The position numbers and the translations under genes are program-made. Source: an uncultured Gammaproteobacteria bacterium (lineage in GTDB: Bacteria > Patescibacteriota > Microgenomatia > Daviesbacterales > UBA10151). Taken from it: DNA of 64,000 nt. The DNA is taken from contig CAZYPW010000004.1 in NCBI GenBank assembly GCA_964649615.1, positions 9,153-73,152 on the forward strand, in the 5' to 3' direction. The notes beneath the pieces were generated by a model. That model was not told the DNA's origin, searched no databases, and saw nothing but the letters and a program-made list of their open reading frames with translations. Shown here piece by piece: positions 9,795 to 62,309 of this stretch; positions within the stretch are counted from its first letter, which is position 1, and each line of letters opens with the position of its first letter.

Positions 9795-11330
9795 TTAATG
9801 CCTAAATGCCCTCCTTTTTGAAAATACCATAGTAATCCCCAGCTCATCAGCAGCATCTATTGAGGCTTTATCATTTACAGACCCGCCTTGCTGCAAAATT
9901 GCAGATATATCATATTGTGCAGCCAATCGTACGCAGTCGTCAAATGGGAAAAAGCTATCCGAAATTAAGATACCTTCTTTAGCATAGTCTGCTGCTTGCT
10001 CCAAAGCAATTTTGGTTGCCCCCACTCTTGAAGTTTGACCCGAACCAATACCGCGAGTCTGCGGAATTTCTTTATCTATTACAATGACTGCATTAGACCT
10101 GACTGCTTTGACTGCTTTAAAACCAAATTTCATCAACTCTAATTGTTTTTCTGTAGGCTTGTTTTTAGTTACAACCTCCCAGTCCTTAAAACTATCTTCT
10201 ATATTATCATCAAAATCCTGAAGTAATGCTGCACCGGAAAAATATTTAAGGTCCCATTTTTCTGATCTTACAGAAGGGATCTCACCGAAGGTATAAATCC
10301 CCATGCTCTTTCTGACCTTTTTCAATAACTCTAACGCTTGATCGCTTATACCCGGTACTGCCACAATATCTATATTTCCTTCTTTCTCATTTTTAAAAGT
10401 AGCAACCACTTTAGCAGCAGCTTCGTCCATTTTTTTATTTATCACCATCACTCCCCCAAAAGCAGAAACAGGATCTGCTTTAACAGCTCTATCTAGCGCT
10501 TCCTCTGCATCTTTCCCGGTTGCTATTCCGCAAGGGCTTAAATGTTTGATCACACAAGCCGCAGCTTCTTTAAATTGCCTGACTGTTTCCAGACCTGCAT
10601 AAATATCACCAATATTGGTACCGGATAATTCCCTGCCCCAAAGGTGTTTTAATTTTGAGAGAGGTGAATTTGTTTTCGGTAATAAATAAAATGCGCCCTG
10701 CTGATGAGGATTTTCTCCATAACGTAGAATATTTGTTTTTCGCAACGGAATTGTTATTTCGTTGGGAAACTCCTGCCTGCCGGCAGGCAGATCTCCTTCG
10801 GAAAAATAATTTCCAATTTGGCTGTCATAAAAAGATAAATGATAAAAAGATTTGGCTGCCAGCTCTTTTCTTTTTTGCACGCTCTTTATAGCATCATCCA
10901 ACTGACCATAATCATTTGAATCTACCATCACTACTACATTTTCATAATTTTTACCGGCTGCTCTAATCATTGTTGGACCCCCCACATCTATATTTTCAAC
11001 ACCGGGTTTCTGTTCAAATGGATAAAGATTACAAACAACAACATCAATTTGTGGAACACCTAATTTTTTTGCTTCTTCAATATGTTTAGGATTTTTCCGG
11101 TCAAACAATATGCCACTTTCTATTTGAAAAGAAATGGTTTTCATCCTACCATCAAAGCAGTCTCTGGGGTTTCCGGTAATTTCTTCAATTGGAGTAACTT
11201 CAATCCCACTTTTTTTAAGTGTTTCAAAAGTCCCGCCTGTGGAGATTATAGTGTAGCCATTTTTTACTAAAACTTTTGCAAAATCTTCTATGCCGGATTT
11301 GTCATATACACTTAAAAGCGCATACTTCAT
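9795..11330 (-). CDS. purH: bifunctional AICAR transformylase / IMP cyclohydrolase PurH
   Basis: N-terminal MGS-like domain (ALLSVYDKSGIEDFAK...ISTGGT) plus a C-terminal AICARFT domain. 511 aa. Confidence 0.9.
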   Translation of the reverse strand: MKYALLSVYDKSGIEDFAKVLVKNGYTIISTGGTFETLKKSGIEVTPIEEITGNPRDCFDGRMKTISFQIESGILFDRKNPKHIEEAKKLGVPQIDVVVCNLYPFEQKPGVENIDVGGPTMIRAAGKNYENVVVMVDSNDYGQLDDAIKSVQKRKELAAKSFYHLSFYDSQIGNYFSEGDLPAGRQEFPNEITIPLRKTNILRYGENPHQQGAFYLLPKTNSPLSKLKHLWGRELSGTNIGDIYAGLETVRQFKEAAACVIKHLSPCGIATGKDAEEALDRAVKADPVSAFGGVMVINKKMDEAAAKVVATFKNEKEGNIDIVAVPGISDQALELLKKVRKSMGIYTFGEIPSVRSEKWDLKYFSGAALLQDFDDNIEDSFKDWEVVTKNKPTEKQLELMKFGFKAVKAVRSNAVIVIDKEIPQTRGIGSGQTSRVGATKIALEQAADYAKEGILISDSFFPFDDCVRLAAQYDISAILQQGGSVNDKASIDAADELGITMVFSKRRAFRH

Positions 11331-12454
11331 GTTAGTATTTTTCTAAGTTCTCCTTTTTCTATTGCCTCTTTAATTTCCATTGCTACTCGCCTTCCCATAG
11401 AAATATTTTTCCCGTATAAATACCCGCTATATGGAGTGGCAAAAATCCCGGGACTTCCCGGCATTCGCGGGGAAACATCAAAAACAATAATTTCCTTTTT
11501 AGGAGGGCCAGGAATGATTATTGTTTGTAAACCAAACGGCCCTATGACTCCTGGCTTATATAGTTTCTGAGAAGCTTTCACAAATCTTTCTCCCATTGCA
11601 AATGCATCTTCTAGTAGAGATTCCAGTACAGTCACTGATACATGGCCTGCCTCTTCAAAAGTTATCCCATACTTATCTCTAACAAGTTTATAATCATCCG
11701 GCGCTACCTTCGTATATCCTTCTGCATTAGTTTGCCTTCTTGTATCTGTTCCTATTAATTCAACTCTTTTATGCAAAGGAGAATAGAAATAATTGAAGTT
11801 AACTTGAACACCTACTAAGTATTCTTCTAATATGGCTCTATCAAGAGCTTCTTGAGTGATTCTACCCTGTCCAATTAATTCTTGTGACCGAGAATAAAAA
11901 GTTTCAGGGGAGTTAACTATAAAAAATCCCCTCTCGAAACCAAGATATTTAGCCATTACTTTCACAACACAGGGGCCATCGATTTCGCTTGGATTTTTAA
12001 ATTGTTTCGGATATCTAATCCCTGCCTCTTCCATAATTTTATATTGATCCACATTATTCCCAGTTCCTCGCTCTTCACATTTTAATAAAAACTTGTTTCC
12101 AAACATGGGGACTTTAAATTTTTTCTCAATTGCATTGTAATCGTTTATATAAACCTCAAAAGACCTGTGGGGAATAAATATGGCATTTCTTTTTAAGAGT
12201 TCTTTTTGAACTTTCTCCGATAAAATATCTTTGAAATTTTCTAACTCAATAACTTCATCAACACAACCTATTTCTCCATTACTTTTGTAATATTTGGCAT
12301 AGGTTTTATCTCTACCCTTTTGCACAATTACCAAAGTTTTAAAACCTAAATCTTTAGCTCCCCTGCAAACATCTAACGCAGAGTGACTACCTAGAACGGC
12401 TATTGTAATATCAGAAAGTTTTAAGTTTTGAATTGTAGTTTTGAGTTTTGACAT
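11327..12454 (-). CDS. purP: archaeal-type 5-formaminoimidazole-4-carboxamide ribonucleotide synthetase PurP (paralogue 1)
   Basis: ATP-grasp PurP family (DUF1246/DUF1297). Motifs LGSHSALD, FYSPL..VEL.G.D.R..TN, PFGLQ and MGRRVAMEIK match PurP as recalled from Methanocaldococcus. Confidence 0.75.
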   Translation of the reverse strand: MSKLKTTIQNLKLSDITIAVLGSHSALDVCRGAKDLGFKTLVIVQKGRDKTYAKYYKSNGEIGCVDEVIELENFKDILSEKVQKELLKRNAIFIPHRSFEVYINDYNAIEKKFKVPMFGNKFLLKCEERGTGNNVDQYKIMEEAGIRYPKQFKNPSEIDGPCVVKVMAKYLGFERGFFIVNSPETFYSRSQELIGQGRITQEALDRAILEEYLVGVQVNFNYFYSPLHKRVELIGTDTRRQTNAEGYTKVAPDDYKLVRDKYGITFEEAGHVSVTVLESLLEDAFAMGERFVKASQKLYKPGVIGPFGLQTIIIPGPPKKEIIVFDVSPRMPGSPGIFATPYSGYLYGKNISMGRRVAMEIKEAIEKGELRKILT

Positions 12455-12467
12455 TTGAGTTTTGAGT

Positions 12468-13484
12468 TTAATCTAAAACCTCCTTTAGCTTATTTTGCGA
12501 AATTGCATTCTTAATCTCGCGGGCGATACGGCGTCCTGTAGACATTGGTTCATCATACAGTAAATATGTATATGGAGATCCATTAATAAAACAATTTGTC
12601 CCTGCAACTATTCGGGCTGAGATTTCTATTACATAAATTTCCTCAGAAGATGTAATAATTGTTTCCAGACAAAACGGCCCAAATAATCCTTTCGGAGAAA
12701 CTATTTTTTGAGATGTTTCAATAACTCTTTGAGCCATATCCACAGCATCTGCAACCATAGATTCCCGAACAGCCATTGGAATGTTTGCAACAACTTCAAA
12801 AGATGGTTCTATATTTAACCCTCTTTGGTTTTTAGCAGGAATCCTACCTAATGAGTCAACATTTGTCTCATATCTTTTATCAACACTCATTAACTCTACT
12901 TTTTTGGTTAACGGTGAATAAAAGAAATGAAAATAAACAGGTACTCCTATTACATATTCCTGAACCATAAACCGCTCTTCCGAAAAGGTTTTTAATTTTT
13001 CATCAAGTTCTTTCTGATTTCTGGCAGTAAAATACCCCTTCCCACCGGCAGCACCATATGATTTTACAATCACCGGCCTATCAGTCTTATCACCTTTTCT
13101 AAATCTGTGGGGAACCTTAATTCCTGCTTCTTCCATCCATATTCTTTGCATCTTTCTGTCCTCCTCCCAATCTAGTACTTTCTTATTTCCAAAATAAGGA
13201 ACTTTCATCTTTTTATTTTCATCCATTCCTAAATATGCCACAAAAGATCCATGTGGAATTATTATGCAATTATCTTTAAGTAACTTTCTTTCTAAGTTTG
13301 GGAAATCGCGCCAGGATTTAATTTTTATTATTTCATCAATGAAGTTTTCGTATGATTTATAAAGTGGAATTCTATCAGAAGTACAAACTACAGCAGTTTT
13401 AAAACCCTCCTGTTTTGCACCCTTGAGAATCTGCAGCGCAGAGTGAGAACCTAAAGTGACAATAGTTATATTTTTAGTTCCCAT
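12468..13484 (-). CDS. purP: archaeal-type PurP family protein (paralogue 2)
   Basis: Same family motifs as paralogue 1 (LGSHSALQILKGAKQEGF, FFYSPLTKKVELMSVDKRYETN, PFCLE, STGRRIAREIKN). About 45% identity to its neighbour by eye. Confidence 0.75.
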   Translation of the reverse strand: MGTKNITIVTLGSHSALQILKGAKQEGFKTAVVCTSDRIPLYKSYENFIDEIIKIKSWRDFPNLERKLLKDNCIIIPHGSFVAYLGMDENKKMKVPYFGNKKVLDWEEDRKMQRIWMEEAGIKVPHRFRKGDKTDRPVIVKSYGAAGGKGYFTARNQKELDEKLKTFSEERFMVQEYVIGVPVYFHFFYSPLTKKVELMSVDKRYETNVDSLGRIPAKNQRGLNIEPSFEVVANIPMAVRESMVADAVDMAQRVIETSQKIVSPKGLFGPFCLETIITSSEEIYVIEISARIVAGTNCFINGSPYTYLLYDEPMSTGRRIAREIKNAISQNKLKEVLD

Positions 13485-17630: not shown

Positions 17631-20383
17631 CCGAATATTTCCTTCATTGGTTTCTGCCAAGCATCTTGTAATTGCTTCATATCCGCGCTAAATAATCCCT
17701 TAACTCCTAATTTCTCCTCTTTTATCGTTTTCCCTAATATCTTAAAAGGTATTCCTTTGAATAATTTCTTAGCATTTTCCTCATCATCTACTTCAACAAT
17801 AAAACATCCTGCTGTTTCGTTAAATAGAAAATCACCTCGAAGGTGGGCTTTGACTCCTTCGAAGTAAAGCTTTACTCCACAATTTCCTCCAACTGCCATT
17901 TCAAAAATTGCAGTAATTAATCCTCCTTCTGAAACATCATGAGACGCTAAAACCTGTCCACTAATAATTGCTTTGTGCACTTTCTTCAAAACCTTAGGTA
18001 GTAGTTTTAAATCCACTTTTGGTACACCTCCCAGGTGGGCCATGACTCCTGGGAGGTGAGCTGCTTGGCCTACCAAAACTACAGTTGATCCCGTCTTTTT
18101 AAAATCAGAAGATACTGTTTTTTTAACATCCGGTATTTTTCCGAAAACTGACATAACTAAAGTCGGTGGGCTATGTATTATTACTCCATTAGACCCCCGA
18201 TAGGTGGCAAATAAACTGTCTTTTCCGGAAATCACAGGCAAATTTAGCGCTTTCATAAAATCAACTACTGCATCTACAGCTCTATCTAATTTTCCCAACC
18301 ATTCTGCATCAGGATATGGCCATATATAGTTGTTTATCAAAGAGGCATTCTTATAATCTCCACCAACAGCAACATAATTTGAGATTGCCTCAGTTGCAGA
18401 CCAGATACTTCCCCAGTAAGAATCCTCTCTTGTTAACTTTGGATTAAGTCCGTGGGAAACAACTACTCCATAAGGTTTATCTAAAATTGGTTTTACAATG
18501 GCTGCATCTTGAGGTCCATCCATCCCTTCTCCGGCATATGGATGTAGCGCATTTGTTCCTTGAACATTGTGATCATAAAGCCTTAATATTGGTTCTTTAG
18601 AATTTACATCACCTGATGCTAAAACTTTTTCTAAAATCTTAGCCCAATCCACTTTGTCATTCTGAACGATTAGTGAAGAATCCCTAGATTTAATCTTGAG
18701 ATTCCTCGCTTCGCTCGGAATGACAGCGGGAGAAGTTGCCTTCATTACCCTTTGAGGCAATCCCCCAAACAAAAACTTCATTTCCAAATCTCCTACTTTT
18801 TCCTTACCATAAAAAACTTGTAACTTTTTACTTCCATCAAACTGCGCAATTTCAGTTGCTTCACTATTATATTTGTTAGCAATTTCCAAAAACTTTTTAA
18901 GATTCTTCTTAGGCAAGATTACCAACATTCTTTCTTGTGATTCTGAAACCCAAATCTCCCATGGTGCAAGTCCCGGATATTTAACAGGAGCCTTTTCTAG
19001 GTGTACCTTTACTCCTAACTTTTCTCCCATCTCTCCAATAGCAGATGAAAATCCTCCAGCTCCCAAATCCTGTACAGCCCTTATTAAATTTTTATCTCTA
19101 GCTTCTAAAATGGCGTCAAACATCCTTTTTTCCTCAATGGCATTACCAATTTGCACAGCAGTGGTATTAACTTCTATAGTTTTTTCGCTCATTACAGCAG
19201 AGGAAAAAGTTGCCCCATGTATCCCATCTCTGCCAGTCCTTCCTCCAACTACTACTCCTATATCACCAATCTCAGGAGAACCTTTTTTAGCTTTGCTTTT
19301 TGGTAAGATTCCATAAGCTCCCACTAACACAATTGGCTTGGCTTTAAAATCCTCATCAAAATGAAATGATCCATTGTTGGTAGGGATTCCTATTCTGTTT
19401 CCATAATCTTTCACTGCTGTAACTACTCTTTTTAAAATATAGTCAGGTGGTAAAGTTCCAGCAGGCAGTTTATTTTTATCTAAGCCAGGAGGGGCTAAAC
19501 AAAAGATATCTGTAGAAACTATAGCCTTTGCACCTTGCCCTGTGGCCACCACATCTCTAAAAACTCCCCCGGATCCGGTCATAGCTCCTCCGTATGGTTC
19601 AATCGCAGATGGAGCATTATGGGTTTCTGCTTTACCATTAATGGCCCATCCCCCGTAAAAATCCATTACTCCGGCATTATCAACAAATGCAGAAACTATA
19701 TTTTTATTGTGTTTCAAAGCTTCTTTTTTAAGACGAGTAAATAAAGGCTCTTTTTCTTTTCCATCAATAATTAGTTTGGCTTTAAAAGTTTTGTGAGCAC
19801 AATGTTCACTCCATGTTTGAGCAATAGTTTCCAGCTCCAAATCAGTTGGATCTCTTTTAATATTTTTAAAACAACTTTGAATTGTTTTCATTTCCTCAAG
19901 ATTTAAAAATAGTTTATACCTTGATAATTCCATTAATTCTTCACCAGTCATATTTCTTAATTTGATAATAGTAGTTTTACCTGAAGTTCCTTTAATTATT
20001 AATGTTTTCGGCTCTTCTGTAACTATATGTTCAACCATAGGATTAAAAAGGCCTTTTAAAACTTCTTTGCTGGGTGAATGAAGAAAACCATATTCATGAG
20101 AAGAATCGGCTGCAATTAATTTAATTCCTAAATCTTCTGAGGCTTTTAGAATAGATCCTACCTCAGGATTCATTACCCCAGGTTTGTAAGCAATTTCTAT
20201 GATTTCTTTAGCGCCTTCTATTATTGGAGAATTTAAAGTATATGTTTGAATAATACTTTCACATAAAAATTTTTCAGCTAATTCCTTGGCTTTCTTTTCT
20301 GAAACCCCTTCTAACCTGTATACCTTAGCTTGTTTTACATCTCCCTTATTCTCAATACTTTTAACCCTGACAACTTGTATCAT
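17627..20383 (-). CDS. purL: FGAM synthase PurS-PurL fusion (phosphoribosylformylglycinamidine synthase II with N-terminal PurS domain)
   Basis: A ~80-aa PurS-like N-terminus (MIQVVRVKSIENKG...) is fused to PurL AIRS-like tandem domains (EPYGGAMTGSGGVFRD, DLGAGGFSSAIGEM). The preferred ATG at 20383 immediately follows the purD stop. Confidence 0.9.
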   Translation of the reverse strand: MIQVVRVKSIENKGDVKQAKVYRLEGVSEKKAKELAEKFLCESIIQTYTLNSPIIEGAKEIIEIAYKPGVMNPEVGSILKASEDLGIKLIAADSSHEYGFLHSPSKEVLKGLFNPMVEHIVTEEPKTLIIKGTSGKTTIIKLRNMTGEELMELSRYKLFLNLEEMKTIQSCFKNIKRDPTDLELETIAQTWSEHCAHKTFKAKLIIDGKEKEPLFTRLKKEALKHNKNIVSAFVDNAGVMDFYGGWAINGKAETHNAPSAIEPYGGAMTGSGGVFRDVVATGQGAKAIVSTDIFCLAPPGLDKNKLPAGTLPPDYILKRVVTAVKDYGNRIGIPTNNGSFHFDEDFKAKPIVLVGAYGILPKSKAKKGSPEIGDIGVVVGGRTGRDGIHGATFSSAVMSEKTIEVNTTAVQIGNAIEEKRMFDAILEARDKNLIRAVQDLGAGGFSSAIGEMGEKLGVKVHLEKAPVKYPGLAPWEIWVSESQERMLVILPKKNLKKFLEIANKYNSEATEIAQFDGSKKLQVFYGKEKVGDLEMKFLFGGLPQRVMKATSPAVIPSEARNLKIKSRDSSLIVQNDKVDWAKILEKVLASGDVNSKEPILRLYDHNVQGTNALHPYAGEGMDGPQDAAIVKPILDKPYGVVVSHGLNPKLTREDSYWGSIWSATEAISNYVAVGGDYKNASLINNYIWPYPDAEWLGKLDRAVDAVVDFMKALNLPVISGKDSLFATYRGSNGVIIHSPPTLVMSVFGKIPDVKKTVSSDFKKTGSTVVLVGQAAHLPGVMAHLGGVPKVDLKLLPKVLKKVHKAIISGQVLASHDVSEGGLITAIFEMAVGGNCGVKLYFEGVKAHLRGDFLFNETAGCFIVEVDDEENAKKLFKGIPFKILGKTIKEEKLGVKGLFSADMKQLQDAWQKPMKEIFG
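18655..18725. repeat. 71-nt palindromic element inserted in-frame inside purL coding sequence
   Basis: tgtcattctgaacgattagtgaagaatccctagatttaatcttgagattcctcgcttcgctcggaatgaca shares termini and inner arms with 16767-16848. The gtcat...atgac core is 69 nt (23 codons) and encodes a linker ...ATSPAVIPSEARNLKIKSRDSSLIVQNDK... without breaking the frame. Confidence 0.6.
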
Positions 20384-24018: not shown

Positions 24019-25919
24019 TATTGAGTCTCCTCTCTAACTTGTTGTGTAATGTTCTCACTAATCTCTTGCCATTTTCTTGGGTCTAAACCTGAACCAGCTG
24101 TTTTTAATTTAAACCAAGTATCTAAATTATCGCTATTAACATTCATTTTCCAGACATTCCCTAACACAATTTTATCACCATCTACTACTGGGGAGAGAAG
24201 ACCAGGTCTTTTATTCTCTTTCGAATATATTATTGAAGCTCTTATTCTAGAAGTAAAATCACCAACCATCTGATCAAAAGTTCCTGAACCATAATAAGAA
24301 TCGAGCTCCTTTTTTAATAATTCAAGTGTCTTGAGCATTTTAGGATCACCTTCTGAGTGTGCGATATTTTGGCTCCCCAGCTGAGCCGCCTCCTGGGCTA
24401 CATCAGGATTCATTGCTTTCGCAAGGTCAGCCTCAGCTAATCCTTTTACAGAGTATCCTTCTATATTATAGGGATCTGCGCTAGGGTTATTTGGTTGTAT
24501 TTTTTCTTGAAAATCATCACGTATAGTAAAATCATTCCAAGCATATTGGTTGTTCCCTAATCCTCTTCCACTTGCAAATTCCTGTAATGTAGTTGGCTCT
24601 GTAGTCATAAAAGGACTACGAGTCTCAGGTGGAGGTTTTGGTCCTGACTCTCCTGCCCCAGCGCTTGCTGGAACTCTAGAATCTTGGCCAGACTGTACAG
24701 CGCCTATCGTATCCCTTGGAATCCCAGCAAGTAACACTAATACCAGCGGGAGAACTGCTAATCTACAACGTCTTCTCTGTTCCCCTGTTGCTCTTATTCT
24801 CATTAAAGCATCCACTTTACGGGCTATCGCTGGATCAACCTTAGATTCTCTTTCACCCCACCTTTCCCTAAATCCTCTAATCTTATTTACTAATGCATCA
24901 ACACCCAGTACACCAATTCCTATTAAATCTCTCATAAATTCTCTAACTCTTGATGCATAACTAAGTCCCTCTAATTCAGAAAATTTCCCTTCTATTGTGA
25001 CTGGGCGGGATTCCGATGAACTTCGTGGACCATTTGAAGGAGGAGGTATTACTATTACAGCTGGATCTGAGGGTAGTTCTGCAGGAGCTGGTTCTTCAGC
25101 AAAACCTCCAAAAGTATGCCCCATCTCCTCATGAACAACTCCAATTTTATCTCTAACTGGATCAGATGGGAAAAGTTGAGGAACCTCTTTTGATGGAAAA
25201 GCAGTTGTCTCTTCTTTTTTGGGAACTTGTAATAACCTGCTGTCTTTTAGACGTGCTATGGCTGCTTGTTTGTCTTCTTCTTGAGACCCAGTTGAGGTGA
25301 GAGGATTTTTCCAGATCCTTCTGGCTTCTTCAGCTATCCTAGATTTTTCCATTGGGTTACTTTCATCTAGAGCATTTGGGAAAGCTTCTGTATATGGAAT
25401 ACTACTATCTTCAAGTACCCGGGCTTCCTCCTGATATGTTCTTAACTGACCCTCTAGGCGCTCTATCATCTGGGGGCTACTCCATCTACTTGCTCTTTGT
25501 TGCTCTAATTCAGCTTTTGTATTAGCTATATCATCTTTTGCACTAGCTATTAACCCGCTTACATCTAAACCTTCATTCCTCTCGTAGATCTCTCCAGTTT
25601 CTGGATTTTTGAATGTAGTTTTTAAAGCATGCTCAGGACGGTCGGTTATAACTAAAATACCATGTCCAGACATACCCCTTAATCCTTTTTGAAACGTCCT
25701 GAATGCAGCAAACTGATTCCGTTGCTGATTAGTTAAAAGCCCGGTATCTGCTAAATCATCAATTTCTATATTAGGAGCTATATCTCTATGGAGTCTCTCT
25801 ATCTTCACTCCCCATCTGTGAGTAGTTCCATTGAAGGCTTTCATTACTTGTTCTCTAGTGGCAACGCCTTCTGGAGGAGGCGTTGCTTCAACTGGAGGAC
25901 GATCGGACAGTTCAGCCAT
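24018..25919 (-). CDS. large hypothetical Pro/Glu-rich protein with HExxH motif; composition atypical for the locus
   Basis: 633-aa ORF noticeably GC-richer than its neighbours (stretches of ~45-50% G+C by eye). Contains VVHEEMGHTFGG (HExxH), proline-rich linkers and one internal hydrophobic segment (AVLPLVLVLLAGIP). No family recognised. Confidence 0.5.
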   Translation of the reverse strand: MAELSDRPPVEATPPPEGVATREQVMKAFNGTTHRWGVKIERLHRDIAPNIEIDDLADTGLLTNQQRNQFAAFRTFQKGLRGMSGHGILVITDRPEHALKTTFKNPETGEIYERNEGLDVSGLIASAKDDIANTKAELEQQRASRWSSPQMIERLEGQLRTYQEEARVLEDSSIPYTEAFPNALDESNPMEKSRIAEEARRIWKNPLTSTGSQEEDKQAAIARLKDSRLLQVPKKEETTAFPSKEVPQLFPSDPVRDKIGVVHEEMGHTFGGFAEEPAPAELPSDPAVIVIPPPSNGPRSSSESRPVTIEGKFSELEGLSYASRVREFMRDLIGIGVLGVDALVNKIRGFRERWGERESKVDPAIARKVDALMRIRATGEQRRRCRLAVLPLVLVLLAGIPRDTIGAVQSGQDSRVPASAGAGESGPKPPPETRSPFMTTEPTTLQEFASGRGLGNNQYAWNDFTIRDDFQEKIQPNNPSADPYNIEGYSVKGLAEADLAKAMNPDVAQEAAQLGSQNIAHSEGDPKMLKTLELLKKELDSYYGSGTFDQMVGDFTSRIRASIIYSKENKRPGLLSPVVDGDKIVLGNVWKMNVNSDNLDTWFKLKTAGSGLDPRKWQEISENITQQVREETQ

Positions 25920-33013: not shown

Positions 33014-33090
33014 AAGTGTTGTTGTTTTCTTTGAAAACTTTTAATTTTTGAATTGTAATTTTGAATTTTGCATTTTGACTTTTGAATTAT
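32990..33090. repeat. AT-rich intergenic repeat with (CAAAAGT)/(TTTTGA) tandem units, related to 44680-44777
   Basis: aaaactcaaaagtcaaaagt ... ttttgaattttgcattttgacttttgaatt. Both ends match the spacer upstream of frr at 44680-44777. Confidence 0.4.
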
Positions 33091-33091
33091 C

Positions 33092-33688
33092 TTAATATTC
33101 TTTTCTGCCTTCCAATGCCCGAGATAAAGTTGTTTCATCAGCATATTCTATATCTGATCCAACAGGCAATCCCCTGGCAATACGGGTTACTTTAATTCCC
33201 AAGGGAAAAATTAATCTTTGTATATACATTGCTGTGGCTTCACCTTCCATAGTAGGATTAGTGGCTAAAATTAATTCTGTTACTTTTCCATCCTTCAATC
33301 TTGGTAATAGTTCCCTAATATGCAATTCATCCGGTCCGATATTTTCCAAAGGAGAAATAACTCCATGCAGGACATGGTAAAATCCGCTAAATTTAGCTTT
33401 TTCTAAGGCCAAAACGTCCAGCGGATTTTCTACCACCATAATTATAGATTGATCACGAGAAGAATCCTCACAGATATCACAGGGATTTTCTTCTCCAATA
33501 TTAAAACAAGTCGTGCAGATAACTATTTTATCTTTCATCTCTAAGGCTGCTTTTGCTAACATTTGCGATTGTTCAACTGGCGCATGAAGTAAATAAAAGG
33601 TCAATCTTTCTGCGGTCTTGGGACCAATGCCCGGAAGCCGTTCAAAGGCCTCAATTAAATTTTGGATAGGTTTGGGAACTCGAGCCAT
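33092..33688 (-). CDS. recR: recombination protein RecR
   Basis: LPGIGPKTAERL helix-hairpin-helix, C4 zinc finger (CTTCFNIGEENPCDIC) and Toprim domain. Confidence 0.9.
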   Translation of the reverse strand: MARVPKPIQNLIEAFERLPGIGPKTAERLTFYLLHAPVEQSQMLAKAALEMKDKIVICTTCFNIGEENPCDICEDSSRDQSIIMVVENPLDVLALEKAKFSGFYHVLHGVISPLENIGPDELHIRELLPRLKDGKVTELILATNPTMEGEATAMYIQRLIFPLGIKVTRIARGLPVGSDIEYADETTLSRALEGRKEY

Positions 33689-39449: not shown

Positions 39450-40561
39450 TATCCTCCCACAAGCTTTTTCAAAAGATCCAACGTCCTAGTTTGCCTTAAG
39501 GCATGGCGCAGGTGCAATTTTGGTTCCTGGGCTTCAAATTGCTTTTTCACTCTGGCATCTTGGATTTTATCTATCTCTGCTTGTAACTGCTCATCTGTGA
39601 TGGTGACATTCTCTTGCCTGGCTATATCTGCTAACCCTAGCTCCATCCTGACATTTTTCTCAGCCTGCGGCCTCCATTCAGTCTTGATTTGGTCCAGAGT
39701 TTTATTCTGGCCTTTTAGATAATCTTCCAGTAAAAGCCCCATATCAGCTACCCTTCTTTGGAGTGAAACTAACATTCTGTTTAATTCATCCTGGATTAAT
39801 ACTTCTGGTAAATCTACTGTAGTAATCTTTTCTACTTCCTGCAGTATTGACTCCTCATAATCAAGCTCATTATTATAGTTAACATTATCTTCTAGATCCT
39901 TTCTTACTTTGGTTTTTAAATCTACTAAATTAGTTCCTCCCATAGCCTTAGCAAAATCATCATTAGGTTGATCTGATGGTGCGCTAGCAGGAACTGCTGA
40001 TTGAGTTTGCTGTCCACCTTGAAAATTTATAGAACCTGCCTGATTTATATTCTGTGTTGCTGAGGGCTGAGGGCTGAGGGCTGTTGGCTGACCAACTGGC
40101 TGCCTTACTTTCCATCTTTTATATAAATCATCAATTACTTTGTTTATTTCTTCATCAGTAACAGGCTTTATGGCAGGCCTTACAGCTTTGATTATTTTGT
40201 AATTTCCCACTTTCACAGCTGGCCTGTTTGTCACTGTTGCTTTAAATTGCAGTTGAGTACCCTTCACAAAAGATAACAGGTCATATTTTGGATAATCTAT
40301 TGGGACAATTTCACTCCCCTTTAGAGCTTCTATTAAAAAGTTGGGCATAGCAACCTTTAAAACTTCATCCTGGAGCCTTTGGCCCAATTGCTGTTCCACC
40401 ATATTAAGTGGTGCCTGGCCTTTTCTAAAACCGGATATTTCTATATCTTGAGCCATTCTCTGCAGAGTCTGATCCCAGGTTGGGGCTAAATCACTCCAAG
40501 GTACAGTAATGCTAACTTCTATTATAGATTTAGGTAAGTTGGTAATATTTTTTGTAATCAT
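39449..40561 (-). CDS. tig: trigger factor (N-terminal ribosome-binding domain present; short, Q-rich insert)
   Basis: GFRKGQAPLNMV signature loop of the Tig N-domain. Contains a GGCTGAG x3 tandem repeat at ~40046-40070. Confidence 0.7.
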   Translation of the reverse strand: MITKNITNLPKSIIEVSITVPWSDLAPTWDQTLQRMAQDIEISGFRKGQAPLNMVEQQLGQRLQDEVLKVAMPNFLIEALKGSEIVPIDYPKYDLLSFVKGTQLQFKATVTNRPAVKVGNYKIIKAVRPAIKPVTDEEINKVIDDLYKRWKVRQPVGQPTALSPQPSATQNINQAGSINFQGGQQTQSAVPASAPSDQPNDDFAKAMGGTNLVDLKTKVRKDLEDNVNYNNELDYEESILQEVEKITTVDLPEVLIQDELNRMLVSLQRRVADMGLLLEDYLKGQNKTLDQIKTEWRPQAEKNVRMELGLADIARQENVTITDEQLQAEIDKIQDARVKKQFEAQEPKLHLRHALRQTRTLDLLKKLVGG

Positions 40562-40597: not shown

Positions 40598-42313
40598 TCA
40601 ATTAGAAGCTATTTGTTTAATTAATTCATTAAGAGTAATAAAAGAAGTTTCCTTTTCTGATCTTTTTTTAACCTCTAATTTTTCACCTGCTTGCCCTGAG
40701 CTTGTCGAATGGGTTTTTTTAGAAATAACCACCCTATATGGAATACCTATTAAATCACAATCTGCAAACTTTTCCCCAGCAGAAACTCCTACTCTATCAT
40801 CAAAAAGTACCTCCACTCCCTCTACCTGAAGTAATCCATATACTTTTTCAGCTTCTTTTCTTACCTTTTCATCCTCCATGTCTAACCCCACAAGATGTAC
40901 CATGTACGGTGCCACACTCTCCGGCCAGATAATCCCTTTCTCATCATGAAAAACTTCCACAATTGCTGCCAAAGTTCTTCCCAAACCAATCCCATAACAA
41001 CCCATGTAATATGGCTTCTCTTTTCCTTGTTGATCCACAAAATTAGCTCCCTTCATTTTAGATGAATAGTGAAATCCTAATTGAAAAATGTTTCCAACCT
41101 CAATTCCTTTTTTTGTAACTAAGGGTAAATGGTTTTTGGAAGTACATCCTTCTTTGGCCAAAGCAATATCTGCCTCAACATCAACTTTATAATCTCTACC
41201 AAGATTAACATTAAGCAAATCTCTGTGTTTTTTATTTGCTCCAGTATAAGCATTTTTAATGCTTCTCAAAGATAAATCTCCAATTACCTTAACCTTTTTG
41301 TTAAGTCCAACAGGAGATATAAAACCAGGTTCTGAACCCAATTTTCTAATTTCTTCCTCTGTAGCATGACGCAATCTATAAGCTTTTGCAGCATGAGCGA
41401 GTTTTACTTCATTTACATCTAAATCCCCACGGATTACAGCCAATATAAAATTGCCATTTTCATCAACCATCATCAAATCTTTCATCTGTTGCCACAAAGG
41501 CAACTTATGTAGCTTTACCCCGTCTTCCATAGTATTACCCCTTACTGCCTCTATTTCCTCTATTTTTTTCTCAGCTTCATTCAGATTTTTATTTTCAAAT
41601 TCAAATACTGCTACATCTTCATGGGCACTATAACCTACCTCATCCATAAGAAATTTACTTTCACCTATTTCGCTTTCTACCACAAATTCATGACAATATT
41701 CTCCGCCAATGTATCCATTATCTGATTCAACCAACAAAGTATTTAATCCTACTCTTTTAAAAATCTCTTCATATGTTTTTTCCATCTTATCGTATTCCTT
41801 CCTAAAGTCCTCCTCAGTTGCATGGAAAGAATAGGCATCTTTCATGACAAACTCTCTTAGGCGCAATAGCCCACCACGGGCCCGCATTTCATCTCTGAAT
41901 TTGACTGAAAATTGATATAAATTAAAAGGTAAATCTTTATAAGAAAGATTGAATTTCCTCACCAGATCTACCAACATCTCCTCTGCAGTTCCACCTAAGA
42001 CAAACTCCATCTCCTGCCTATCTTTAATACTCATCAGCTCAAATCCTACGGAGCTTGTTCTATTAGTTTCTTCCCATAAATACTTTGGGTGAAGCACCGG
42101 GGCAATTAACTCTTGAGCACCAGCTTTATCCATCTCTTCCTTAATAATTGTTTGAATTTTTTGATGAACCCTCCAACCTAAAGGTAAAAAATAATATCTT
42201 CCAGCTACAGATTCTCTGATAAAACCTGCTCTATAAAGCAATTTATGCGAATCCAATATTGCATCTTTAGGAGTATCTTTAATTGTTTTTCCAAATAATC
42301 TTGAGTATTTCAT
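40598..42313 (-). CDS. proS: prolyl-tRNA synthetase (bacterial type)
   Basis: Class II motifs incl. FRDEMRARGGLLRLREFVMKDAYSF (motif 2) and a GCYGIGLGR-like motif 3. Start placed at MKYSRLFG. A 24-nt block shared with thyA lies near the C-terminus. Confidence 0.9.
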   Translation of the reverse strand: MKYSRLFGKTIKDTPKDAILDSHKLLYRAGFIRESVAGRYYFLPLGWRVHQKIQTIIKEEMDKAGAQELIAPVLHPKYLWEETNRTSSVGFELMSIKDRQEMEFVLGGTAEEMLVDLVRKFNLSYKDLPFNLYQFSVKFRDEMRARGGLLRLREFVMKDAYSFHATEEDFRKEYDKMEKTYEEIFKRVGLNTLLVESDNGYIGGEYCHEFVVESEIGESKFLMDEVGYSAHEDVAVFEFENKNLNEAEKKIEEIEAVRGNTMEDGVKLHKLPLWQQMKDLMMVDENGNFILAVIRGDLDVNEVKLAHAAKAYRLRHATEEEIRKLGSEPGFISPVGLNKKVKVIGDLSLRSIKNAYTGANKKHRDLLNVNLGRDYKVDVEADIALAKEGCTSKNHLPLVTKKGIEVGNIFQLGFHYSSKMKGANFVDQQGKEKPYYMGCYGIGLGRTLAAIVEVFHDEKGIIWPESVAPYMVHLVGLDMEDEKVRKEAEKVYGLLQVEGVEVLFDDRVGVSAGEKFADCDLIGIPYRVVISKKTHSTSSGQAGEKLEVKKRSEKETSFITLNELIKQIASN

Positions 42314-43585: not shown

Positions 43586-44674
43586 TTATGGAAGTAGTTT
43601 TTTGATATCAGAATAAGTTATCAGTACTGCTAAAGATAATAAAAGGACAAAGCCTACAGTATGGATCAGCTTCTCCACCTCTGCTTTAACCTTTTTGCCA
43701 ATGGCAGCCTCAATTAATAAAAAAAGTAGCCTTCCTCCATCCAGAGCAGGAATTGGTAAAACATTAAAAATTGTAAGAGTTAAAGATAAAACTCCTATAA
43801 ACCAAAGGTAAGGTAAAATAGCTTGCCAGCCTGTACTTAAGATATTACTGGTAATATTAGCAATCCCAATAGGCCCTGCCACACTTTGGGAAACTGTTTG
43901 TAAGTCTCCTCTAAATAGATTGGAAAACATCTGTCCTAGACCCATAAAAGTAACTCTGGTTAGATCATAAGAATAAGTGATACCTGAAAATAATTTTTCT
44001 CCTAAAGTAAGATATTGTTTAAAAGGGATGGGAGAAAAAGCCACTCCTATTAGATAATCTCCATTGTCTGCTTGTTTGGGAGTAATTGTTAATAACCTGG
44101 GATTTTGGCCCTCAATATCTGCCAATTTAACTTCTATCTTCGCTCCCTTTTTTTCTTGAATAAATTTTTTGCCATCTGTCAAATTGATTAATTTTTGATT
44201 ATCTATTGCTAAAATTCTATCTCCAACTTTAATCCCAGCTTGTTGTGCAGGAAAATTATTCTCAACAAACCCCACAAAAATTCCAGGCTCAATTGTTGGA
44301 TAAATAATCTTAAAGTTCTGGAAGAATAAAACCACATAAAAAATAAGCCAAGCCAAAAGTAAATTCATCACTACTCCACCTATGACTACTAAAATCCTTT
44401 GGTGAACAGATTTTGCAGCAAAGGAGCGGGGATTTTTTAAAATTTTACCATCTACCTCATCTTCACCTAGAAGTTTTACAAATCCCCCATAAGGAATCCA
44501 ATTTATAGAATATAGTGTCTCGCCAATTTTTTTGCCCCAAATCCTAGGAGGTATACCGAAACCGAATTCTTCAACCTTGATACCAAACCTTTTGGCCATC
44601 AAAAAATGGCCCAATTCATGGATTACAACTAATACCAGTAGGGTAATGATAAAAATAAGTATGGATATTATCAT
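43586..44674 (-). CDS. rseP: RIP metalloprotease RseP (site-2 protease, M50)
   Basis: HELGHFLMAKRFG (HExxH), PDZ domain and C-terminal LDGG motif. Confidence 0.85.
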   Translation of the reverse strand: MIISILIFIITLLVLVVIHELGHFLMAKRFGIKVEEFGFGIPPRIWGKKIGETLYSINWIPYGGFVKLLGEDEVDGKILKNPRSFAAKSVHQRILVVIGGVVMNLLLAWLIFYVVLFFQNFKIIYPTIEPGIFVGFVENNFPAQQAGIKVGDRILAIDNQKLINLTDGKKFIQEKKGAKIEVKLADIEGQNPRLLTITPKQADNGDYLIGVAFSPIPFKQYLTLGEKLFSGITYSYDLTRVTFMGLGQMFSNLFRGDLQTVSQSVAGPIGIANITSNILSTGWQAILPYLWFIGVLSLTLTIFNVLPIPALDGGRLLFLLIEAAIGKKVKAEVEKLIHTVGFVLLLSLAVLITYSDIKKLLP

Positions 44675-44679
44675 AAGTA

Positions 44680-44777
44680 AAAACTCAAAAGTTAAAAGTC
44701 AAAATTACAATTAAAAAATAAAAAGTTTTCTTAGAGAAAACTACCATACTTTTGATTTTTGCATTTTGAATTTTGAA
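44680..44777. repeat. AT-rich intergenic repeat related to 32990-33090
   Basis: taaaaactcaaaagttaaaagtcaaaatt ... cttttgatttttgcattttgaattttgaact, with the same terminal motifs as the recR-proximal spacer. Confidence 0.4.
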
Positions 44778-45332
44778 CTATATTTGTACTAACTCTTCCT
44801 CCTTAGTCTTCCCCAAACTTTCAACTTCTGCTATCTTTTTATCCACCAACTCCTGAAGCAGTTTTTCTCTTCTGAAAAATTCATCTTCACCAAATTTTCC
44901 ATCATCAGATTGTTTTTTCCACTCATTCCTAAAATCTTGCCTGATTTGCCTGATGGATACCTTAGTATCCTCCATTTTGTGCTGCAGAATTTTAATAAAT
45001 TCTTCTCTTCTCTCTGCAGTTAAAGGAGGGATAGGCAATCTGATTAGAGTTCCTTCATTAGAAGGGTTTAAACCTAAATTTGCTTCCTGAATTGCTTTAA
45101 TTACGTTTTGCAGCACTGAGGCATCCCAAACTTGAACTGTCAAAAGAGAGGGTTGCGGTACAGAGATATTTCCCACTTCAATCAGTTTCATAATACCCCC
45201 ATAAGCCTCAACTGGAATATTCTCAATCATGCCAGGATTTGCTCTGCCAGCCCTAATCCCTGCCAACTCCATTTTAAAATGATGCAAGGCATCTTCTATT
45301 TTTTTGTTTGGTTCAGACAGTACTGGATCCAT
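44778..45332 (-). CDS. frr: ribosome recycling factor
   Basis: 184 aa. The ...AGIRAGRANPGMIENIPVEAYGG... pattern is typical of Frr. Confidence 0.9.
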   Translation of the reverse strand: MDPVLSEPNKKIEDALHHFKMELAGIRAGRANPGMIENIPVEAYGGIMKLIEVGNISVPQPSLLTVQVWDASVLQNVIKAIQEANLGLNPSNEGTLIRLPIPPLTAERREEFIKILQHKMEDTKVSIRQIRQDFRNEWKKQSDDGKFGEDEFFRREKLLQELVDKKIAEVESLGKTKEEELVQI

Positions 45333-47365: not shown

Positions 47366-48379
47366 CTATCCTGACATTTTACCAGTTTTCGGATCATAAA
47401 GCCCACCGGCAACAGTTAACTCTGCTTTAAGCATTGGATAAGGATCATAACCCTCAAGCTCTACCATTTCCGGTTTAAAATCATCAATAGATTTTAATTT
47501 TCCATTTATTTTTATCTTAGGAAATGGACGGGGCTTTCTTTTTAATTGCTCTTTTACTTGCGGAATATGATTTTCATAAATATGCGCATCTCCAAAAGTA
47601 TGGATAAATTCTCCTGGTTTAAGTCCGGCAATCTTTGCCAAAACTATTGTAAGTAATGCGTAGCTTGCAATATTGAAAGGCACCCCCAAAAATAAATCAG
47701 AAGAGCGTTGATATAATTGCAGAGATAATTTTCCATTCCTGTTTGAAATTTGAAACATATTATGACAAATTGGAAATCTTGATGCATCTTCATTTGTAGC
47801 CATGGTATATAAATATTCCGGATTCCAGGAATTTACAATTAAGTTTTTTGCATCCGGGTCATCTTTCATCTCCTGTAATATCCACTTAAGTTGATCTATA
47901 GTTCGACCCTTTTTTCTGGCCTGCCCTGAGCTTGTCGAATGGGTTGGCCATTTTCTCCACATCTCTCCATAAATTCTTGGTAATTCCCCGTGCTCTTTAG
48001 CAAACTTTTTATCTGTTTTTATTTTCTCTATAAATTCTTCCTTACTTTTGACTTTTGACTTTTGACTTTTGACTTTGTATATCTTATACGGATAATCATC
48101 CCAAATATGCACATTTTGATCTACCAAATATTTAATATTGGTCTGTCCTGACATAAACCAATAGAGCTCATGTATTACTCCTTTCCAGTAAACTTTTTTG
48201 GTAGTTAAAAGCGGGAATCCGCCAGCTGGCGGACTTTGGGACAAATCATATCTTGTTTGCCTGCCAAAAAGAGAGTACAGCACAATCCCTGTTCCCCGAT
48301 CCACTTTCCTTTCTCCATGTTCCAAGGCTTCCTTTAATAAATCTAAGTATTGATATTCAGGATGTTTCTGCTTTACCAT
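47366..48379 (-). CDS. thyA: thymidylate synthase ThyA carrying several short in-frame insertions
   Basis: GFPLLTTKK and HELYWF motifs and the catalytic-Cys region (FPICHNMFQ). Insertions relative to the E. coli ThyA sequence as recalled: SPPAG (palindrome), KVKSQKSKVKSK (heptamer repeat) and HSTSSGQARKK (block shared with proS). Confidence 0.9.
   Translation of the reverse strand: MVKQKHPEYQYLDLLKEALEHGERKVDRGTGIVLYSLFGRQTRYDLSQSPPAGGFPLLTTKKVYWKGVIHELYWFMSGQTNIKYLVDQNVHIWDDYPYKIYKVKSQKSKVKSKEEFIEKIKTDKKFAKEHGELPRIYGEMWRKWPTHSTSSGQARKKGRTIDQLKWILQEMKDDPDAKNLIVNSWNPEYLYTMATNEDASRFPICHNMFQISNRNGKLSLQLYQRSSDLFLGVPFNIASYALLTIVLAKIAGLKPGEFIHTFGDAHIYENHIPQVKEQLKRKPRPFPKIKINGKLKSIDDFKPEMVELEGYDPYPMLKAELTVAGGLYDPKTGKMSG
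48044..48076. repeat. (CTTTTGA)x4 heptamer tandem repeat inside thyA
   Basis: acttttgacttttgacttttgacttttgactttg. Encodes KVKSQKSKVKSK on the coding strand. Confidence 0.6.
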
Positions 48380-51547: not shown

Positions 51548-51577
51548 AAAAAAACCTCCCTGGTGGGAGGCTTCGTA
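51548..51577 (-). terminator. intrinsic terminator / attenuator hairpin 14 nt upstream of the aspartokinase start
   Basis: The minus strand reads gaagcctcccaccagggaggttttttt: a 6-bp GC stem (cctccc/gggagg) followed by a T7 run. The 5' arm can instead pair with the upstream ggagctttcgta (11/12 pairs) as an antiterminator. Confidence 0.55.
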
Positions 51578-51604
51578 ACTGTCTTTTATTTGACAATTTT
51601 TACA

Positions 51605-54276: not shown

Positions 54277-54947
54277 ACTTTTAGTGCGCGAAGCGCGCGA
54301 GCTTTGCTTAGAATCTTTAAAATCTCTCTGTGGATTTTCTCTTCGGGGTTCATTTTATCATTCTCCATACAATTTATAACAACCCAATTTTTTTCTGACT
54401 GGGAAAGTTCCAGATAAATTTGGGCCGCTTTTTCTTCATGTTCCAAACTTTTTTCATGAATATCAGTCAGATGAGCTTTTAAGGCATTCTCTTGTCCCAT
54501 TTTTGGATCAACATTTAAAAGAATCACTAAATCTGGTTTTGGCATGCCATTAGTTTGATATTCCAGCTGATCCACCCATTTTATAAAATCTTCTCTCTTG
54601 CTCTCATCTAAATTTGCTCCCAAGTGGGCTTTAGATGCAGAAACATATCTGTTAGCAATAATTAATTTTCCATTTTGCAGCCAGTTTTCAATTTCTGGTT
54701 TTGCTAAAAGTCTATCCGCTGCATAAGCTTCAGCTATCCAATATGGATCCACCTTATTTATAGCCCCAAATTCTCCCTCCAAATATCTTTTAACTAATTT
54801 TCCATATTCATTTTCCTGATATCTTGGAAAGCTTATCACCTCAAAAGGAATGCTTTTTTCCTGAAAATATTTACTTAAAAATTCAATCTGGGTAGTTTTC
54901 CCAGATCCATCTATCCCATCTATAACAATAAGCAAACCTTTGTTCAT
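54273..54947 (-). CDS. tmk: thymidylate kinase
   Basis: LLIVIDGIDGSGKTTQ P-loop, DRY-like ANRYVSAS and a lid region. Start placed at MNKGL; the ORF track extends 33 nt further. Confidence 0.85.
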   Translation of the reverse strand: MNKGLLIVIDGIDGSGKTTQIEFLSKYFQEKSIPFEVISFPRYQENEYGKLVKRYLEGEFGAINKVDPYWIAEAYAADRLLAKPEIENWLQNGKLIIANRYVSASKAHLGANLDESKREDFIKWVDQLEYQTNGMPKPDLVILLNVDPKMGQENALKAHLTDIHEKSLEHEEKAAQIYLELSQSEKNWVVINCMENDKMNPEEKIHREILKILSKARALRALKV

Positions 54948-60269: not shown

Positions 60270-62309
60270 TCAAATGACAACCTCAGATTTATCAGTTTTT
60301 GGTTTAGTCCAGGAAGCAAATTTGCAGCCTGGCCAGTTTTTACAGCCGTAAAAAGTTTTCCCTTTTCTGGTTTTTCTGACCACAATCTCTCCTCCGTCTA
60401 ATGGACATTTAGCATTAACTTTTTCCTCAAGGCTTTCTGTATGTTTACAATCAGGAAAACCACTGCAGGCTAAAAATTTACCAAACTTACCTATTCTCAC
60501 CATTAATTGTTTACCACATAAGGGACAATTTTTATCCACCATCTCAACTTCCATTTTAACTTTTTGAGCCGTTTTTTCGGTCTGCTCTAATTTTTTCTCA
60601 AAAGGATCGTAAAATGCTTTGATTGTTGGCTTCCATTGTCTTTCTCCTCTGGCAATATCATCCAGTTCATCTTCCATTTGGGCTGTGAATTGGTAATCAA
60701 AAACATCCGGAAAATACTCCATTAAAAAATCACAAACTGTAAATCCCAGGCCAGTTGGAATAAACTTTCTCTCTACTCTTTCAACATAAAACCGCTCCTG
60801 GATGGTGGAAAGGGTGGGTGCATAAGTAGAAGGCCTGCCAATCCCCAGCTCTTCCAGTTTTTTAATCAATGAGGCTTCATTATATCTGGGAGGAGGCTCA
60901 GTAAAATGCTGCCCGGGAATAAGCTGAATTAAGTTCAATAGTTGTTTTTCAGATAGCACTGGCAAAACCTGTTTTTTCTCATCTCCCTCTTTTTCAGCTT
61001 CCTTCCCATATAATTTTAACCAACCATCAAATTTAATTACACTACCAGTTACTCTCAGTAAATAATTGTCTGCTAATATATCAATAGCTGTCTGATCCAT
61101 CACTGCCTCAGACATCTGGCAAGCCACAAATCTTTTCCAAATTAAATCATATAATCTAACATGGTCTTTGTTAAAATTATCCTGTTGCCTGATGCCTGTT
61201 GCCTGTAACCTGACATCTGTTACTCTGATTGCCTCATGGGCTTCCTGGGCATTTTTGGATTTTGATTTAAAAATTCTAGCTGCTTTAGGCAAATAAGATT
61301 TGCCGATTGAATTCTCAATATATGTGCGTACTGCTCCAATTGCCTGGGCAGACAAATTAACAGAATCTGTTCTCATGTAAGTAATGAAGCCATGTTCATA
61401 TAAATTCTGGGCCAGCATCATAGTTTTTTTGGCTGACATCCCCAATTTGTTTGCTGCAGCTTGCTGAAGAGTTGAAGTTGTAAAAGGTGGATACGGAAAT
61501 CTCCTAGTTTCTTTTTGAGTTATTTTTGAAACAATGTAAGAAGCTTTCTCTAAATTTTTAACATGCCCATCTGCTTCTTCTTTACTGCTAATTTCCAATT
61601 TCTTGACATTTTGCTCTATTAAAGTTGCTATAAACCTTGATTCTTGAAGATCGTTAGATCGCAAGCTCTGCTTATTCTTGATTCTTGATTCTAATTCTGC
61701 TTCAATTATCCAATATTCCTCTGCTTTAAAGGCTTGAATCTCTCTTTCCCGCTCCACTATTAGCCTCAAAGCCACAGACTGAACTCTTCCTGCAGATAAA
61801 CCCTTTTTTACCTTTATCCAAAGCAGTGGAGACAATTTATACCCAACAAGTCTATCTAAGACCCTTCTGGCTTGCTGAGCATCTACGAGTTTTAAATCTA
61901 TCTCTCTAGGATTTTTAAAAGCTTCTTTGATTGCTTCAGGGGTAATTTCATGGAATACAACACGTTTTATGTCTTCACTTTTGAGTTTTGAGTTTTGAGT
62001 TTTGAGTTCAGAATTGCGTAGCAATTCTGCTATATGCCAGGCAATTGCTTCACCTTCCCTATCAGGATCTGTGGCTAAATATAAGTTTTTAGCATTTTTA
62101 GCTATTTTTTTTAGCTCATTAACTGTTTTTCTCTTATCTCTGGGGATTATATATTGGGGCTCAAAATTATGTTCAATATCCACTCCCAAATCAGACTTGG
62201 GCAAATCCCTGACATGCCCCATTGAGGCTTCTATTTGATATTTATCCCCTAAAAACTTTTGCAAAGTCCGGGCTTTGGTTGGCGATTCAACTATTACTAA
62301 ATTCTGCAT
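60270..62309 (-). CDS. topA: DNA topoisomerase I
   Basis: Toprim N-terminus LVIVESPTKARTLQKFLG, active-site Tyr region and two C-terminal C4 zinc ribbons (CPLCGKQL...CSGFPDC, CPLDGG...CKNWPGC). Confidence 0.95.
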   Translation of the reverse strand: MQNLVIVESPTKARTLQKFLGDKYQIEASMGHVRDLPKSDLGVDIEHNFEPQYIIPRDKRKTVNELKKIAKNAKNLYLATDPDREGEAIAWHIAELLRNSELKTQNSKLKSEDIKRVVFHEITPEAIKEAFKNPREIDLKLVDAQQARRVLDRLVGYKLSPLLWIKVKKGLSAGRVQSVALRLIVEREREIQAFKAEEYWIIEAELESRIKNKQSLRSNDLQESRFIATLIEQNVKKLEISSKEEADGHVKNLEKASYIVSKITQKETRRFPYPPFTTSTLQQAAANKLGMSAKKTMMLAQNLYEHGFITYMRTDSVNLSAQAIGAVRTYIENSIGKSYLPKAARIFKSKSKNAQEAHEAIRVTDVRLQATGIRQQDNFNKDHVRLYDLIWKRFVACQMSEAVMDQTAIDILADNYLLRVTGSVIKFDGWLKLYGKEAEKEGDEKKQVLPVLSEKQLLNLIQLIPGQHFTEPPPRYNEASLIKKLEELGIGRPSTYAPTLSTIQERFYVERVERKFIPTGLGFTVCDFLMEYFPDVFDYQFTAQMEDELDDIARGERQWKPTIKAFYDPFEKKLEQTEKTAQKVKMEVEMVDKNCPLCGKQLMVRIGKFGKFLACSGFPDCKHTESLEEKVNAKCPLDGGEIVVRKTRKGKTFYGCKNWPGCKFASWTKPKTDKSEVVI
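61978..62008. repeat. (GTTTTGA)x4 heptamer tandem repeat inside topA
   Basis: ttttgagttttgagttttgagttttgag encodes NSELKTQNSKLKS. Followed by a perfect 9-bp hairpin cagaattgc-gta-gcaattctg (62009-62029). Confidence 0.6.

Follow-up and report, generated by a model that had tools for sequence, protein, structure and literature searches.

A 24-nt GC-rich unit within thyA and proS of a Daviesbacteria genome: a probable ultra-short dispersed repeat

The small dispersed repeats (SDRs) of Nostocaceae, reportedly described by Elhai and co-workers in 2008, are said to measure 21-27 nt and to lie within other repeats, their mobility having been inferred. Rickettsia palindromic elements (RPEs), said to go back to Ogata and co-workers in 2000, are reportedly palindromes of about 100-150 bp, specific to Rickettsia, which as selfish repeats stand in frame within genes, including essential ones, and are tolerated for their location in regions at the protein surface. 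SDRs are cited in passages of PMC3116915, PMC2884548 and PMC5861425, the last of which reports them, in the passage concerned, as restricted to Nostocaceae; RPEs are mentioned in a passage of PMC10969869. Elsewhere, passages on repetitive extragenic palindromic (REP) elements and REPINs present them as mobilised by RAYT transposases (PMC3116915) and REPs as carriers of a GTAG/CGTC tag (PMC3733652). Here we analyse a 24-nt, GC-rich block that occurs twice, within thyA (thymidylate synthase) and within proS (prolyl-tRNA synthetase), in a 64,000-nt stretch of metagenome-assembled DNA (the window; assembly GCA_964649615.1, contig CAZYPW010000004.1, positions 9,153 to 73,152 of the forward strand) from Candidatus Daviesbacteria, a lineage of the candidate phyla radiation (CPR). 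We consider it reasonably probable that the two blocks are independent copies of an ultra-short, non-palindromic, GC-rich dispersed repeat, which is inserted as a discrete piece across phyla and of which the harmless copies persist.

Insertion of the unit in thyA and proS

The 24-mer TGCCCTGAGCTTGTCGAATGGGTT occurs exactly twice in the window, on the plus strand at 40692-40715 and 47922-47945; the sequence-only reading had given the first position correctly and had set the second (47921-47944) one base off. Its contention was that a 24/24 identity is beyond chance; none of 100 dinucleotide shuffles of the window contained any match to the 24-mer. No third copy was found in the window at up to 3 mismatches, and a scan loosened to 8 mismatches added only one further match, at chance level. 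The window has a GC content of about 35%, and its minus strand holds nearly all genes, including the two that carry the unit:

47366-48379, minus strand: thyA, thymidylate synthase, 337 aa (long open reading frame (ORF), PF00303, compared with the solved structure 3uwl)
47919-47942, minus strand: 24-nt micro-insertion unit CCATTCGACAAGCTCAGGGCAGGC in thyA, adding HSTSSGQA between Thr and Arg of the W-PT/RKKGRT-IDQL loop
40598-42313, minus strand: proS, bacterial-type prolyl-tRNA synthetase, 571 aa when counted from the annotated start (PF00587, PF04073, PF03129, compared with the solved structure 8w8j)
40689-40712, minus strand: 24-nt micro-insertion unit CCATTCGACAAGCTCAGGGCAAGC in proS, adding HSTSSGQA between KKT and GEK in the C-terminal anticodon-binding domain

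Flanking C residues leave the placement of the thyA insert uncertain by 1-2 nt. The coding strands read CCA AC/C CAT TCG ACA AGC TCA GGG CAG GC/C AGA in thyA and AAA AAA AC/C CAT TCG ACA AGC TCA GGG CAA GC/A GGT in proS (slashes mark the ends of the unit), and one common frame, T-HSTSSGQA, serves both genes; the ORFs and the coding-strand reading thus bear out the in-frame, minus-strand peptide that had been recognised at first. A further remark, that both flanks contain CCTGC, proved trivial, as in thyA the pentamer overlaps the unit itself. The peptide to be expected if the thyA/proS-type insert is translated is ...WPTHSTSSGQAR.... The host products are named by NCBI as the proline--tRNA ligase and the thymidylate synthase of Candidatus Daviesbacteria, and the top database matches of both are Candidatus Daviesbacteria proteins of 100% identity.

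That the block is an insertion had been proposed relative to E. coli; the proposal also holds against close orthologues, of which 120 were compared for ThyA (76-85% identity) and 120 for ProRS, and most of which lack HSTSSGQA. Approximately 100 of the 120 ThyA sequences read W-PT-RKKGRT-IDQL or a near variant where the window reads PT-HSTSSGQA-RKKGRT, and most of the ProRS sequences read SKKT-GEK-LEVKKR where the window reads SKKT-HSTSSGQA-GEK. Taking out 24 nt restores PT/RKKGRT and KKT/GEK, respectively, and the DNA of syntenic relatives exhibits a clean 24-nt difference in both genes without target duplication. Against the solved thymidylate synthase 3uwl the thyA insert corresponds to a gap, in a loop for which eukaryote-type enzymes likewise have a greater length. 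The segment of the proS insert is six residues shorter in the solved ProRS 8w8j, and the insert falls in the gap.

The thyA insert is absent from the related locus L001, and the proS insert is absent from the proS gene of L003; because L003 carries the thyA insert only, the two insertions were independent events. Neither of two origins suggested earlier is called for, a gene-conversion tract between thyA and proS not being needed and a shared pre-existing target sequence finding no support, whereas the other suggestion, a short mobile insertion, is supported by the clean 24-nt inserts, by their independence and by the insertion of the unit at unrelated sites in many phyla, with the pairs of filled and empty sites described below.

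Pan-bacterial distribution, filled and empty sites

The consensus of the GC-rich unit is CC(C/A)-TTCGACAAGCTCAGGGCA-RGC, and its length is 23-25 nt, typically 24. Over 175 copies, positions -3 to -1 were CCC (92/97/81%) and positions +1 to +3 were RGC, with a roughly random composition further out, which indicates a discrete unit of 24 nt. The exact core TTCGACAAGCTCAGGGCA was present in 40 viral contigs, and the exact 18-mer core was found, between unrelated flanks, in at least 120 stretches of GTDB species-representative genomes. Represented among the matches listed are Acidobacteriota, Chloroflexota, Pseudomonadota (including a Sphingomonas natans isolate), Verrucomicrobia, Planctomycetes, Bacteroidia, Actinomycetota, Chlamydiota, a Nostoc isolate (L089), Saccharibacteria, Paceibacterota and Uhrbacteria; the CPR-type variant, CCATTCG..., gave many matches in metagenomes, at least as many as those listed. 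Five loci (L009, L043, L071, L120 and L127) hold tandem arrays of period 24. The unit is pan-bacterial and not specific to CPR. It is also found in finished plasmids or chromids of cultured isolates of Sphingobium, Sphingomonas, Novosphingobium, Rhizorhabdus, Variovorax, Polaromonas and Comamonas, and is therefore no artefact of metagenomes.

Scans of the window and of 17 loci with the Rfam covariance models gave no family that covers the unit. No paper printing the sequence came to light in a full-text search of the literature for the unit DNA and its six peptide readings, and searches by concept turned up general papers on repeats only. An identity of 20 nt to the core in a tail fibre gene of LIT1-like Pseudomonas phages (for example FN422399.1, 34154-34173; about 68 cultured phages) was set aside; neither the CCC nor the RGC flank accompanies it, and the match is probably a coincidence.

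Filled and empty sites were found in several groups. The IS3-family transposase gene of Sphingomonas sp. NY01 p1 differs by a 23-nt gap from that of DS-9 pDS1 and NIC1, its flanks being identical to DS-9, and the IS3-family transposase gene of Rhizorhabdus wittichii DC-6 likewise differs by a 23-nt gap from Swit_5097 of strain RW1. The variant interrupting both genes, which are borne on plasmids, is CC(C)TTCGACAAGCTCAGGACAGG(G); both inserts are 23 nt long and antisense to the transposase gene, shift its frame and leave the target unduplicated. In Acidobacteriaceae, a REP-like hairpin (AG[CT]CGTCCC-loop-GGGACT) measures 18 nt when empty and 42-43 nt when filled, at the same loci, the unit occupying the loop. 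In Chloroflexaceae (L046), a (GAGTGAC)n heptamer array is broken by exactly 24 nt of unit with the repeat phase kept. A target-site duplication was sought at four filled/empty junctions and none was seen; the unit is inserted as a discrete piece of 23-25 nt without target duplication. An IS110 transposase near one copy was considered as an associated element and rejected, as it is not adjacent to the unit.

Of the described systems, SDRs, compared here by description only, are alike in size class (about 21-27 nt), in the lack of coding capacity, in dispersal, in the inference of mobility from filled and empty sites and in a location inside other repeats. The unit differs from them in that it spans many phyla and phage contigs, with one copy in Nostoc, and stands in frame in essential CPR genes. 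It shares with RPEs an in-frame position within ORFs, essential genes included, and an apparently tolerated product; in contrast to these palindromes of 100-150 bp, roughly five times longer, it comprises 24 nt, is not palindromic and is pan-bacterial. Like REPs and REPINs it is short, GC-rich, dispersed and present in many copies without target duplication, but it has no palindromic stem and is not extragenic in CPR. Folding energies of the unit DNA were -0.6 to -1.7 kcal/mol, with z-scores of 0.2-0.9, no better than shuffles, indicating no stable stem-loop, and neither GTAG nor CGTC was present when both strands of the unit were read directly. In the REP-like loops of Acidobacteriaceae the unit is a passenger of REP-like elements, not a REP itself.

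Other classes could be rejected. A palindrome or hairpin element does not agree with a unit that does not fold; flanking complementarity was modestly above control (p=0.0014), so that copies tend to lie in hairpin loops but do not always do so. A miniature inverted-repeat transposable element is contradicted by the lack of terminal inverted repeats and of any duplication at the four junctions. DNA uptake sequences occur about once per kb and are lineage-specific, as against 2 copies per 64 kb here and a spread over many phyla. Homing introns and inteins offer a parallel, in that they too are patchily distributed at a single conserved site of conserved genes and are better conserved than the host gene, but the unit has no ribozyme, endonuclease or excision from mRNA, and is predicted to be translated. 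On these comparisons we would place it among the very small dispersed repeats, or in-frame selfish DNA.

Orientation, site use and competing explanations

All three sense frames of the unit are free of stop codons (PFDKLRAG, xSTSSGQA and LRQAQG), whereas one antisense frame contains TGA. On low-GC contigs, copies in ORFs of at least 150 aa were sense in 27 cases and antisense in 1 (p of about 1e-5, open frames predicting 3:2); of the sense copies, 23 used STSSGQ, 2 RQAQG and 2 FDKLRA. High-GC genomes, whose ORF calls are unreliable, gave a ratio of sense to antisense of about 2:1. The inserts in the IS genes, which are dispensable, run antisense and break the frame, and we therefore take the CPR pattern to reflect a selection filter on a process itself unspecific for orientation, such that the bias in orientation and frame would be due to selection and ThyA and ProRS would merely tolerate the insert. 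A mini-intron, removed at the RNA level, was considered and rejected: on low-GC contigs approximately 30 copies are in frame within long ORFs that stay intact, whereas 4-5 disrupt an ORF, and as a rule the unit is probably not removed from mRNA.

A dispersed repeat of this kind would operate as follows. The unit encodes nothing and would have to be copied in trans; the copy-in may be associated with replication or repair and based on single-stranded DNA, carried out by a widespread enzyme of the host or of a mobile element with some site preference, although this step is a guess. In a gene-dense, AT-rich CPR genome the persisting copies would be the harmless ones, namely those whose length is a multiple of three, which lie in sense orientation with stop-free frames, and which yield a small polar peptide, HSTSSGQA, in length-variable loops of ThyA and ProRS.

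Several results weigh against this account. Module-type inserts were present in 20 of the 120 ThyA orthologues and require 9-12 gain/loss events on 100 bootstrap neighbour-joining trees (shuffled-trait median, 19), and all of them, single units and derivatives alike, lie at one codon boundary, PT^; in ProRS the inserts are likewise confined to one boundary, KT^G. The compared thyA genes are 73-78% identical in nucleotides, with a third-position identity of 0.49-0.57 at identical residues, close to saturation of synonymous sites, but in the module codons CAT TCG ACA AGC TCA GGG the third positions were identical in 28 of 28 cases, and in those of proS in 7 of 7; the orthologues had been picked by protein sequence, so this is no effect of ascertainment. 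A target-site consensus was not found over 62 AT-rich copies, no candidate for a mobilising enzyme was found, and two copies per 64 kb are too few to give abundance in this genome. A model in which one insertion was followed by passive decay does not fit the thyA and proS data, which leaves a choice between three processes: repeated recent insertions with a strong site preference, selection at the nucleotide level, or homogenisation between copies.

The unit may be an active mobile element of most bacterial phyla and phages, copied in trans without target duplication and with a homing-like site preference, although we regard this as doubtful. A specifically site-directed insertion, in which a trans-acting system places or restores consensus copies and the thyA and proS boundaries are its true targets, would account for the at least 9 separate thyA events at one codon boundary, for the uniform ProRS boundary and for a module that looks far younger than its host gene. 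It would also suit a Levybacteria proS (L298), in which a different variant, ACG CTT CGA CAA AGC TCA GGG CAA GCC, encodes LRQSSGQA at the same KT^G boundary. Yet what the two genes share as a target is limited to AC^ beside an A-rich stretch, over and above the missing consensus and enzyme. Moreover, in the thyA genes of other Microgenomates (L284, 3001-4071; L285, 3001-4089) unrelated GC-rich inserts of 39/42 nt with self-complementary ends occupy the same ThyA loop one codon earlier, after the Pro codon CCC, which points to tolerance of the loop. On balance, site-directed insertion appears unlikely. In the middle of the L285 insert stands a sequence (CGACGCTCAGGCG) that is similar to the core of the 24-nt unit.

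If selection acts on the nucleotides themselves, the unit would be a functional motif, namely a recognition site in DNA or RNA, bound or processed for instance by some widespread protein and kept by purifying selection within coding regions too, comparable to parS sites within genes. The invariant synonymous positions, with three different Ser codons and G/C-ending codons kept in an AT-rich genome, are what such a motif would produce, as are the identity of the core across phyla and the strong orientation bias in AT-rich genomes. Disruption of IS3 transposase genes, residence in REP-like loops and the broken heptamer array are instead the behaviour of an insertion. Decayed or duplicated copies stand at the same loci, comprising HSASSGRA, RSAGSGQA and, at the thyA site, diverged versions of 48 nt and 57 nt (L286 and L287); the unit also has no Rfam match, no structure and a low density, and we consider a functional motif quite improbable.

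Convergent gain by both enzymes of a useful peptide, HSTSSGQA serving for example as a modification site in a tag or loop, would agree with the one frame used by 23 of the 27 sense copies and with the conservation of the peptide in several orthologues. In other phyla the same DNA is found in different frames and in antisense orientation, and it also occupies hairpin loops between genes and transposase pseudogenes; its conservation reaches synonymous sites, which a function of the peptide leaves unexplained; a selected peptide is therefore very improbable. Finally, an assembly or library artefact, such as a chimeric read or an adapter-like sequence, is scarcely credible: nothing beyond the metagenomic source of the genome speaks for it, whereas separate public assemblies encode proteins identical to ThyA and ProRS on contigs of 96.7 kb and 195 kb (ThyA on contigs of two lengths), other samples and pipelines (ENA, JGI, Logan and NCBI assemblies) contain orthologous inserts that have diverged slightly, and the unit occurs in the finished genomes noted above.

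Sibling modules and the meaning of the unit

The search for window-specific insertions yielded 6, of which 4 are GC-rich repeats. A second micro-insertion in thyA contains a perfect 16-nt palindrome, TCCGCCAGCTGGCGGA (48218-48233; insert called at 48221-48235), and gives SPPAG in DLSQ-SPPAG-GFPLL. At this site, 108 of 113 parsed orthologues exhibited a five-residue DLSxG-type motif without the insert and 5 carried it, as did one (P0011) of 7 unparsed sequences; another orthologue (P0013) has ISPPAGG in a different ThyA loop, such that the SPPAG module is also dispersed. Within a 929-aa ORF, CTCCCGCTGTCATTCCGAGCGAAGCGAGG (18704-18732) is read in frame as SPAVIPSEARN. The 21-mer GTCATTCCGAGCGAAGCGAGG of this VIPSEARN unit was found in 12 viral contigs with approximately 10 distinct flank contexts and always with AATC after it, which makes the unit the second widespread micro-module of this genome. 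In the trigger factor gene, a window-specific insertion of 10 aa, PTALSPQPSA (40058-40087), consists of three tandem GCCCTCA heptamers with 67% GC.

Repeats of other kinds were also observed. Hexamers of the form TTTTGA[CG] recur at 48043-48080, 12415-12473, 33035-33093, 44671-44784 and 61955-62008; those in thyA (48043-48080) encode KVKSQKSKVKSK, where the length of the orthologues is strongly variable. GC-rich palindromes or hairpins, for example CTGCCTGCCGGCAGGCAG and CACCTCCCAGG...CCTGGGAGGTG, lie in long ORFs at 10759-10803, 18018-18064, 25857-25889, 4261-4302, 11444-11477, 51552-51579 and 54278-54311, and may be more in-frame micro-insertions.

Two observations concern the neighbourhood of the host genes. 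The thyA-folA junction is tight in the window, L001 and L003, and holds extra genes in L286 (11138-11416), L284 (4097-5636) and L285 (4133-6403), among them a GIY-YIG nuclease gene, a PIN-domain gene and a 661-aa ORF without an assigned function; the junction looks like a hot spot for the insertion of selfish genes. Where the window has the bacterial type of ProRS with an editing domain, L001 encodes at 17668-19110 an archaeal/eukaryote-type ProRS (480 aa, ProRS-C_1) with synteny conserved, a displacement of the gene in situ.

The 24-nt unit provides a concrete source for the short insertions that set CPR proteins apart from their orthologues, and accounts for peptides that recur spuriously in metagenome annotations (FDKLRAG, LRQAQG, STSSGQA, PELVEG and LSLSKG). 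Because cultured strains with finished genomes carry the Sphingomonas IS3 inserts, the mechanism is open to experiment. If the unit is an active mobile element, it would be the smallest mobile DNA known; its mobility would set a new lower limit to the size of an element dispersed across phyla and would imply a copying activity not yet described. Were that mobility homing-like, it would explain both the repeated use of the same codon boundary in thyA and in proS and copies that look younger than their host genes. The unit and its sibling modules, the SPPAG palindrome and the VIPSEARN unit, would then be a major overlooked source of small insertions in the proteins of CPR.
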